2,827 nt of DNA from Enterobacteria phage CUS-3, in the sequence record FN394996.1. The stretch is one strand, 5' to 3'. Under the pieces are notes generated by a model, which saw nothing but the letters and a program-made list of their open reading frames with translations, was not told where the DNA came from and made no database searches. Positions 1 to 1,762 of the stretch are shown here, in pieces. The position numbers and the translations under genes were made by a program. Positions within the stretch are counted from its first letter, which is position 1. Each line of letters opens with the position of its first letter.

Positions 1-438
1 ATGGCGCGCCCAACAAAGTATCAAGAGGCGTATGCCGAACAGGCACGCAAACTGTGCTTGCTGGGCTACACCGATGCAGAGCTTGCTGATTTCTTCGAAG
101 TCAGTGAGTCAACTATTAACAAGTGGAAGCTTGATTATCCTGAGTTTTCGGAGTCCATAAAAAAGGGTAAGGCCGTCGCTGATGCAGAAGTTAGTGATCG
201 TCTTTATCAACGCGCTATGGGCTTCGTGGCTCCAGATATCGATATTCGTGTTATTGAAAACAGAATTGTCGAAACTCCGCTTGAGAAGTATTACCCGCCT
301 GATACAACCGCTGCCATTTTCTGGCTTAAGAACCGACAGAAGGATAAATGGCGCGACAAGGTTGATCACGAGCTAACAGGCAAAGACGGCGGCGCAATTC
401 AGATTGAAACATCACCGATGAGCACTCTATTCGGAAAA
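1..438 (+). CDS. Phage terminase small subunit (TerS), Sf6/P22-like packaging module; 146 codons visible from the ATG at 1, stop codon hidden in the masked block
   Basis: Frame 1 ORF starting at ATG 1. Translation MARPTKYQEAYAEQARKLCLLGYTDAELADFFEVSESTINKWK... contains an N-terminal helix-turn-helix-like segment (GYTDAELADFFEVSESTINKWK), an AIFWLKNRQKDKWRDK stretch typical of small terminase subunits, and a C-terminal tail GKDGGAIQIETSPMSTLFGK that I recall as shared with the Sf6-type small terminase. The ORF track extends it to 543 only because masked N codons translate as X; the in-frame TGA at 541-543 is not evidence of the true stop. Confidence 0.75.
64..129 (+). other. Predicted helix-turn-helix DNA-binding motif within TerS (residues about 22-43)
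   Basis: Sequence GYTDAELADFFEVSESTINKWK has the short helix / turn (S-E-S) / recognition helix pattern of HTH motifs; small terminases bind pac DNA through an N-terminal HTH. Pattern-based only. Confidence 0.45.
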
Positions 439-538
439 NNNNNNNNNNNNNNNNNNNNNNNNNNNNNNNNNNNNNNNNNNNNNNNNNNNNNNNNNNNNNN
501 NNNNNNNNNNNNNNNNNNNNNNNNNNNNNNNNNNNNNN
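439..538. other. Masked or undetermined sequence (100 N)
   Basis: Run of exactly 100 N. Hides the TerS stop codon and whatever lies between TerS and the tailspike-like ORF. 100 N is also the conventional scaffold-gap placeholder, so true length may be unknown. Confidence 1.
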
Positions 539-1762
539 TCTGAGCCATGTGTAAAATATTATGATGGCATTCTGTATCTGACGACCAGGGGGACATTAAG
601 TACTCAACCCGGTAGTTCATTGCACAGAAGCTCTGATTTAGGTACATCATGGAATTCTCTTCGCTTCCCAAATAATGTTCATCACTCAAACCTTCCTTTT
701 GCCAAAGTTGGCGATGAGCTGATTATTTTTGGCAGTGAGCGCGCATTTGGTGAGTGGGAAGGAGGAGAACCTGATAACCGTTATGCAGGAAATTATCCAA
801 GAACATTTATGACCAGAGTTAACGTCAATGAGTGGAGTCTGGATAATGTAGAGTGGGTTAATGTTACTGATCAGATTTATCAGGGCGGAATAGTTAACTC
901 TGCGGTTGGTGTTGGTTCAGTTTGTATCAAAGACAACTGGCTGTACTACATTTTCGGTGGGGAAGACTTTCTAAACCCATGGAGCATAGGGGATAACAAC
1001 AGAAAATATCCTTATGTTCACGATGGTCACNNNNNNNNNNNNNNNNNNNNNNNNNNNNNNNNNNNNNNNNNNNNNNNNNNNNNNNNNNNNNNNNNNNNNN
1101 NNNNNNNNNNNNNNNNNNNNNNNNNNNNNNNNNNNNNNNNNNNNNNNNNNNNNNNNNNNNNNNNNNNNNNNNNNNNNNNNNNNNNNNNNNNNNNNNNNNN
1201 NNNNNNNNNNNNNNNNNNNNNNNNNNNNNNNNNNNNNNNNNNNNNNNNNNNNNNNNNNNNNNNNNNNNNNNNNNNNNNNNNNNNNNNNNNNNNNNNNNNN
1301 NNNNNNNNNNNNNNNNNNNNNAGCGGCGGTGAAACAACGTCTTCAGCAGATGGCGCAATGATAACGTTGCATGGTTCCGGAAGCAGTACTCCACGTCGCG
1401 CGGTATATAACGCACTCGAACATCTTTTTGAGAACGGAGATGTTAAACCTTATCTTGATAATGTAAATGCTCTTGGTGGTCCGGGAAACAGGTTCTCGAC
1501 AGTTTATCTTGGCTCCAATCCTGTGGTTACCAGTGACGGAACATTAAAGACAGAGGCGGTCTCTCCTGACGAAGCATTGCTGGATGCCTGGGGTGACGTC
1601 AGGTATATCGCTTATAAATGGCTGAACGCTGTCGCTATAAAGGGGGAAGAAGGGGCGAGGATACATCATGGTGTAATCGCGCAGCAACTTCGTGATGTTC
1701 TTATTTCTCACGGACTCATGGAAGAAGAAAGCACAACATGCCGCTATGCCTTTCTTTGCTAT
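539..1762 (+). CDS. Tailspike / tail fibre protein, endosialidase-like (sialidase beta-propeller segment plus C-terminal intramolecular chaperone domain); partial, with start and stop both in masked sequence
   Basis: Frame 2 has no stop from 422 to 1762 across visible sequence. Visible segment 539-1030 translates to ...YYDGILYLTTRGTLSTQPGSSLHRSSDLGTSWNSLRFPNN...GGEPDNRYAGNYPRTFMTRVNVNEWSLDNVEWVNVTDQIYQGGIVNSAVGVGSVCIKDNWLYYIFGGEDFLNPWSIGDNNRKYPYVHDGH, with an Asp-box. Visible segment 1322-1762 translates to ...NRFSTVYLGSNPVVTSDGTLKTEAVSPDEALLDAWGDVRYIAYKWLNAVAIKGEEGARIHHGVIAQQLRDVLISHGLMEEE..., matching the S-D-x-x-L-K autocleavage and HHG-IAQ motifs of the peptidase S74-type chaperone domain found at the C-terminus of endosialidases and other tail fibres. 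The 291-nt masked block keeps the frame (97 codons). This ORF is absent from the supplied ORF track, apparently because it has no in-window stop. Confidence 0.7.
629..652 (+). other. Asp-box (bacterial neuraminidase repeat) motif SSDLGTSW
   Basis: Codons 629-652 in frame 2 encode S-S-D-L-G-T-S-W, fitting the S-x-D-x-G-x-x-W Asp-box consensus of sialidase-type beta-propellers. Confidence 0.6.
1031..1321. other. Masked or undetermined sequence (291 N) inside the tailspike-like ORF
   Basis: 291 N, which is 97 codons; frame 2 is the coding frame on both sides. Confidence 1.
1532..1762 (+). other. C-terminal intramolecular chaperone (peptidase S74-like) domain, N-terminal part, with predicted autoproteolytic Ser-Asp site at codons 1532-1534 / 1535-1537
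   Basis: TSDGTLKTE (Ser 1532-1534, Asp 1535-1537) followed by DVRYIAYKWLNAV and RIHHGVIAQQL (1658-1690) matches the conserved order of motifs in tail-fibre chaperone domains. About 76 residues of the domain are visible; the rest and the stop codon are masked. Confidence 0.6.

Follow-up and report, generated by a model that had tools for sequence, protein, structure and literature searches.

Fragment layout of a CUS-3 typing record almost certainly accounts for the apparent adjacency of small terminase and endosialidase tailspike

Results

Gene fragments in the window

The stretch of DNA analysed here (the window; 2,827 nt, record FN394996.1, with all coordinates given as positions in the window unless another record is named) contains four stretches of real sequence, at 1-438, 539-1030, 1322-1762 and 2180-2827, separated by runs of 100, 291 and 417 N at 439-538, 1031-1321 and 1763-2179, respectively. 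All four pieces are read on the forward (+) strand and comprise the complete coding sequence of the small terminase subunit (TerS) of a CUS-3-type prophage, running from the ATG to the last sense codon with the stop trimmed (1-438), an internal fragment of the tailspike gene siaK1 (539-1030), a second fragment of the same gene (1322-1762), and neuO, the gene for a polysialic acid O-acetyltransferase, also running from the ATG to the last sense codon with the stop trimmed, and with its repeat tract removed (2180-2827). CUS-3 is a P22-like (Lederbergvirus) prophage of Escherichia coli K1, and its tailspike is an endosialidase equipped with a P22-type head-binding domain. The initial annotation, made from the letters alone, described them correctly as a TerS open reading frame at 1-438, exactly 100 N at 439-538, and a stretch at 539-1030 that is open in frame 2 and already inside the beta-propeller.

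The open reading frame of the first piece starts with ATG and has 146 codons. Its product falls into PHROG 309 ('terminase small subunit') at E 2e-68, and over the C-terminal 38 residues it is almost the same as the TerS of Sf6, gp1, for which structures are available (E 5e-11); a Pfam search of this piece matched no family. As Pfam is without a model for this TerS, the assignment rests on PHROGs, on the C-terminal match to Sf6 gp1 and on synteny. In the complete CUS-3 genome (CP000711, the prophage of E. coli RS218), the piece is located at 22705-22268, which is CDS ECRS218_0022 minus its stop codon, and shares 98.4% identity with this annotated TerS gene, and it is 100% identical to the gene upstream of the large terminase gene (TerL) in E. 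coli E1 (NZ_CP104503) and GPEC172 (NZ_CM142814). PGAP labels the TerS gene 'hypothetical protein'. Given that only the C-terminal 38 residues match Sf6 gp1, the TerS of the window looks, as far as sequence comparison goes, like a mosaic of a shared C-terminal segment and a different N-terminal part rather than a full-length orthologue of Sf6 gp1.

The second piece (539-1030) encodes residues 487-650 of the 981-aa CUS-3 tailspike, which belong to the C-terminal portion of its catalytic beta-propeller (positions 192-355 of the 367 in the Pfam model End_beta_propel, E 1.6e-104), and maps to CP000711 4013-3522 in codon phase 0; in the sister records, the same interval is annotated as 'siaK1 endosialidase', partial at both ends. 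Residues 748-894, comprising the end of the stalk and most of the C-terminal intramolecular chaperone domain, are encoded by the third piece (1322-1762; CP000711 3230-2790, phase 0), which matches the last 70 of the 160 positions of Pfam End_tail_spike (91-160, E 7e-33) and also Peptidase_S74, the intramolecular chaperone (E 1.2e-11). By Pfam, the window therefore holds propeller, stalk and S74 parts of an endosialidase tailspike, and the full-length reference tailspike carries a P22-type Head_binding domain at residues 1-113 together with all the other domains. The record does not include residues 1-113 (head-binding domain) and 146-212 (N-terminal extension), nor does it include the beginning of the propeller. 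According to the initial annotation, the tailspike lacks its N-terminal domains; these domains, however, were left unsequenced or were not deposited, and there is no truncated tailspike here. E. coli E1 possesses the full 2946-nt tailspike gene (981 aa) with the siaK1 alleles of the window at 100% identity.

The fourth piece (2180-2827) is an ATG-initiated open reading frame of 216 codons that encodes a hexapeptide-repeat acyltransferase (Pfam Hexapep), and the body of the gene is 99.5-100% identical to neuO of CP000711, E1 and IMT5155. The neuO gene specifies a phase-variable polysialic acid O-acetyltransferase, in which AAGACTC repeats start two nucleotides past the start codon (PMC3046976; PMC13001214). 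At 2180-2195, the window reads ATGTC directly followed by GTTTTCC, the AAGACTC tract having been cut out after ATGTC. Complete genomes retain between 11 and 21 copies of this repeat, with 19 (133 nt) in RS218, 11 in E1, 21 in elppa4 and 18 in IMT5155. With the tract removed, neither the ON/OFF state of neuO nor the copy number of the source strain can be read from the window. In E1, neuO is in the OFF phase at 11 copies, and PGAP annotates only a 336-nt CDS.

When mapped onto CP000711, all four pieces begin and end on codon boundaries, the reference codon right after the first piece being TGA and that after the fourth being TAA. Moreover, the reading frame is kept across the 291-N run, the second and third pieces both being open in frame 2. 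Taken together, the codon-exact trimming, the removal of the stop codons and the excision of a hypervariable repeat point to human editing for allele comparison. A deletion and an assembler were also considered as the origin of the piece ends and both were rejected, as neither would produce codon-exact trimming along with repeat excision.

Distances and gene content between the fragments in complete genomes

Comparison with complete genomes revealed that the three N runs are of two kinds. The 291-N run at 1031-1321 is a placeholder of exact length, corresponding to a true 291 bp in CP000711, E1 and IMT5155 and thus to 97 codons (siaK1 residues 651-747). The 417-N run at 1763-2179 is likewise exact, with 417 bp between the end of the third piece and the ATG of neuO in the same three genomes, made up of 264 nt (the last 87 siaK1 codons and the stop) and the 153 nt that separate siaK1 from neuO. 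The 100-N run at 439-538, in contrast, is a spacer of arbitrary length between non-adjacent typing fragments, and it replaces kilobases of sequence in complete genomes, namely 18,254 bp in CP000711, 15,772 bp in E1, 17,680 bp in GPEC172 and 20,754 bp in IMT5155 (NZ_CP005930), as well as, judging from match coordinates, 20,753 bp in phiv205-1 and 16,368 bp in vB_EcoP-720R6. Placing TerS 'about 100 nt from' the tailspike, as was done initially, thus took a placeholder for a measured distance. The accompanying expectation that TerS is followed by TerL, with the tailspike many kilobases away, holds true in every complete genome examined. As for the suggestion that the 100 N might be a scaffold gap of unknown size, it was right about the size, which ranges from 15.8 to 20.8 kb across these six complete genomes, but not about its nature, the run being a deliberate spacer.

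The DNA between the two loci can be read in related genomes. The sister record FN394994 is derived from strain IMT_5155, and all four of its pieces map at 100% identity onto the complete IMT5155 chromosome (NZ_CP005930), in which the gap is occupied by TerL, portal, scaffold, coat, gp4, gp10, tail and ejection proteins, arc/antirepressor genes and the 5′ part of the tailspike gene. In E. coli E1, which carries the first three pieces of the window at 100% identity and the fourth at 99.8%, the gap contains a complete P22-type late gene set (TerL, portal, scaffold, coat, gp4, gp10, ejection proteins and arc) along with the full tailspike. Hence, the many kilobases of normal morphogenesis genes that, according to the initial annotation, would speak against a biological junction are present both in the very strain behind FN394994 and in the allele-identical E1. 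TerS resides directly upstream of TerL, portal, scaffold and coat in E1 and GPEC172, where the allele is identical to that of the window, and also in CP000711 and IMT5155.

Finally, the whole window was searched against 5,426 complete E. coli genomes, with pieces being joined when they lay up to about 1.9 kb apart. Within this distance, TerS was not found joined to the siaK1 pieces in any of these genomes, and the best places cover 539-2827 only. Several other genomes in this search have, like elppa4 (see below), just one matching place each.

Sister records of the same layout

A megablast of the window against the phage sequence collection identified 17 records, each 2827 nt long (FN394218, FN394986-FN394995 and FN394997-FN395002). 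Every one of the 17 has its TerS match at 1-438 and its siaK1 match at 539-1030, which are the coordinates of the window itself. The only number skipped in this accession run is FN394996, the record of the window. The titles of the two records examined read 'Enterobacteria phage CUS-3 partial proviral terminase gene, siaK1 gene and neuO gene, genotype GT_13 / GT_10'. FN394997 and FN394994 carry four partial CDS features at 1-438, 539-1030, 1322-1762 and 2180-2827, and their N runs extend exactly over 439-538, 1031-1321 and 1763-2179, as in the window, with each CDS stopping at the N boundaries. The closest record, FN394997 (GT_13), differs from the window by 6 bases, and the TerS allele of the window is 99.3% identical to that of the best sister typing record. 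By its layout as well as by its edited fragments, the window is a member of this CUS-3 multi-locus typing series. We take Mordhorst et al. 2009 (Environ Microbiol 11:3154-3165), which both of the neuO papers named above cite, to be the probable source of these records, the purpose of which is otherwise read from their titles and structure.

Decay and exchange in CUS-3-type prophages

Several of the genomes compared bear marks of rearrangement. In IMT5155, the tailspike gene is split by an IS66 element inserted about 213 nt into the CDS (NZ_CP005930, locus L006 3497-8892). This split represents real prophage decay, although at a place other than that proposed initially, and FN394994 does not reveal it. 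In the chicken isolate VTB96815v (NZ_CP178648.1, 3483863-3487584), an IS3-family transposase is annotated within the siaK1 region, which is another independent insertion into the endosialidase gene. GPEC172 (NZ_CM142814, locus L005 2381-6122) has the TerS allele of the window and the siaK1 fragments, with an integrase pseudogene beside the tailspike, and a neuO match was not found in this genome. In E1, only a truncated integrase-like pseudogene lies beyond neuO (locus L003 22839-23174). The int-neuO end of these prophages seems to be prone to erosion.

A different kind of variation is exemplified by elppa4 (NZ_CP083512, locus L004 2905-4867 and 23027-34366), which has the same siaK1-neuO end combined with a different pair of genes for a 'DNA-packaging protein' and a large terminase; megablast of the window TerS against this pair returned no match. 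That the packaging pair differs at the same siaK1-neuO end implies that the packaging module is exchangeable among CUS-3-like prophages. Judging from annotated product names, directly downstream in elppa4 there is an apparent P4-type satellite (integrase, Icd-like, primase, Psu and ogr/Delta) with a retron St85 aboard.

Discussion

The window brings TerS and the distal part of an endosialidase tailspike to within 100 characters of each other. We are confident, to the point of near certainty, that this adjacency is an artefact of deposition, and that the window concatenates separately sequenced, codon-trimmed fragments of CUS-3 joined by N. On this reading, the record is one of a series made for typing the CUS-3 prophage of E. 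coli K1, each member of which combines TerS, two siaK1 pieces and a repeat-less neuO. The runs of 291 and 417 N keep the real spacing of the contiguous stretch from siaK1 to neuO, and the 100 N are the conventional 'length unknown' filler between two loci separated by 16-21 kb, one on either side of the morphogenesis module. The DNA hidden behind the 100 N would probably comprise TerL, portal, scaffold, coat, head-completion and ejection proteins, the immunity-I genes and the 5′ half of siaK1. If the 100 N are a spacer for 16-21 kb, there is neither a TerS-tailspike junction nor a truncated tailspike to explain. The pieces map in this layout onto the related and sister genomes, and in these the intervening module is intact. 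From the sister strains and the allele-identical genomes, we infer by sequence comparison that the strain behind the window is likely to carry an intact intervening module as well.

The main alternative, which was offered as one of two options in the initial annotation, is a genuine deletion in the source K1 strain that would have removed everything from TerL through the 5′ half of siaK1, leaving TerS beside the distal tailspike with neuO retained. The bases under the N are unreadable, so the window on its own leaves room for such an event, and decay of other kinds does occur in CUS-3-type prophages, as illustrated by the IS66 in IMT5155, the IS3 in VTB96815v and the integrase pseudogenes in E1 and GPEC172. 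Nevertheless, we consider this deletion very improbable. The same layout recurs across 17 records from different strains and genotypes, and the one strain among them with a complete chromosome in our comparison, IMT5155, has 20.7 kb in the gap that its own record, FN394994, shows as 100 N. Moreover, a deletion would not stop at the last sense codon of TerS only to resume exactly on a codon boundary of siaK1, and siaK1 residues 651-747 and 895-981 as well as the neuO repeats are likewise missing from the record. Lastly, TerS does not come within about 1.9 kb of the siaK1 pieces in any of the 5,426 complete E. coli genomes. A deletion that fused the packaging module with the 3′ portion of siaK1 is without support.

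Slightly less probable still is the view that the N runs are scaffold gaps left by a short-read genome assembly. The number 100 is indeed the usual convention for gaps of unknown size, yet the fragments end at start codons, last sense codons and codon boundaries, and the repeat tract is precisely excised. Furthermore, the 17 records of 2827 nt share their coordinates, the titles speak of partial genes and give a genotype number, and an assembler would not link TerS to the middle of siaK1 past 16-21 kb of unique sequence. That the N runs were added later as masking over a contiguous record, as is the case for some stretches in one sequence collection, is hardly credible, because the same N runs, with the CDS ending at their boundaries, are present in FN394997 and FN394994 as stored in GenBank, and because 16-21 kb separate TerS from siaK1 codon 487 in all complete genomes examined, so that the 100 N are not a mask of real sequence.

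With concatenated typing fragments as the preferred explanation, the record matters only as a warning. Distant loci can end up side by side in a deposited record when N is used to connect them, and exactly 100 N carries no information on how far apart they are. In the window, the remaining two runs do keep the true spacing, so the length of an N run has to be compared with that in a complete reference. Biologically, the CUS-3 prophage, its endosialidase tailspike and the phase-variable neuO are already well described.

Among known systems, the window is closest to the CUS-3 typing records, with which it shares the length of 2827 nt, the coordinates of the pieces and of the N runs, and the gene content, and from which it differs in being a distinct combination of alleles. 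The four pieces are collinear with the complete CUS-3 (CP000711), the P22-like Lederbergvirus of RS218, and 98.4-99.8% identical to it; TerS there precedes TerL, and siaK1-neuO occupies the int-proximal end. The complete prophage differs in having 18,254 bp in place of the 100 N, and in possessing the AAGACTC tract (19 copies) that is missing from the window. As compared with Sf6 gp1 (PDB 3HEF, 4DYC), the last 38 residues of TerS are nearly identical and the large terminase partner is of the same type, whereas the N-terminal ~108 residues of the window TerS are without a sequence match.
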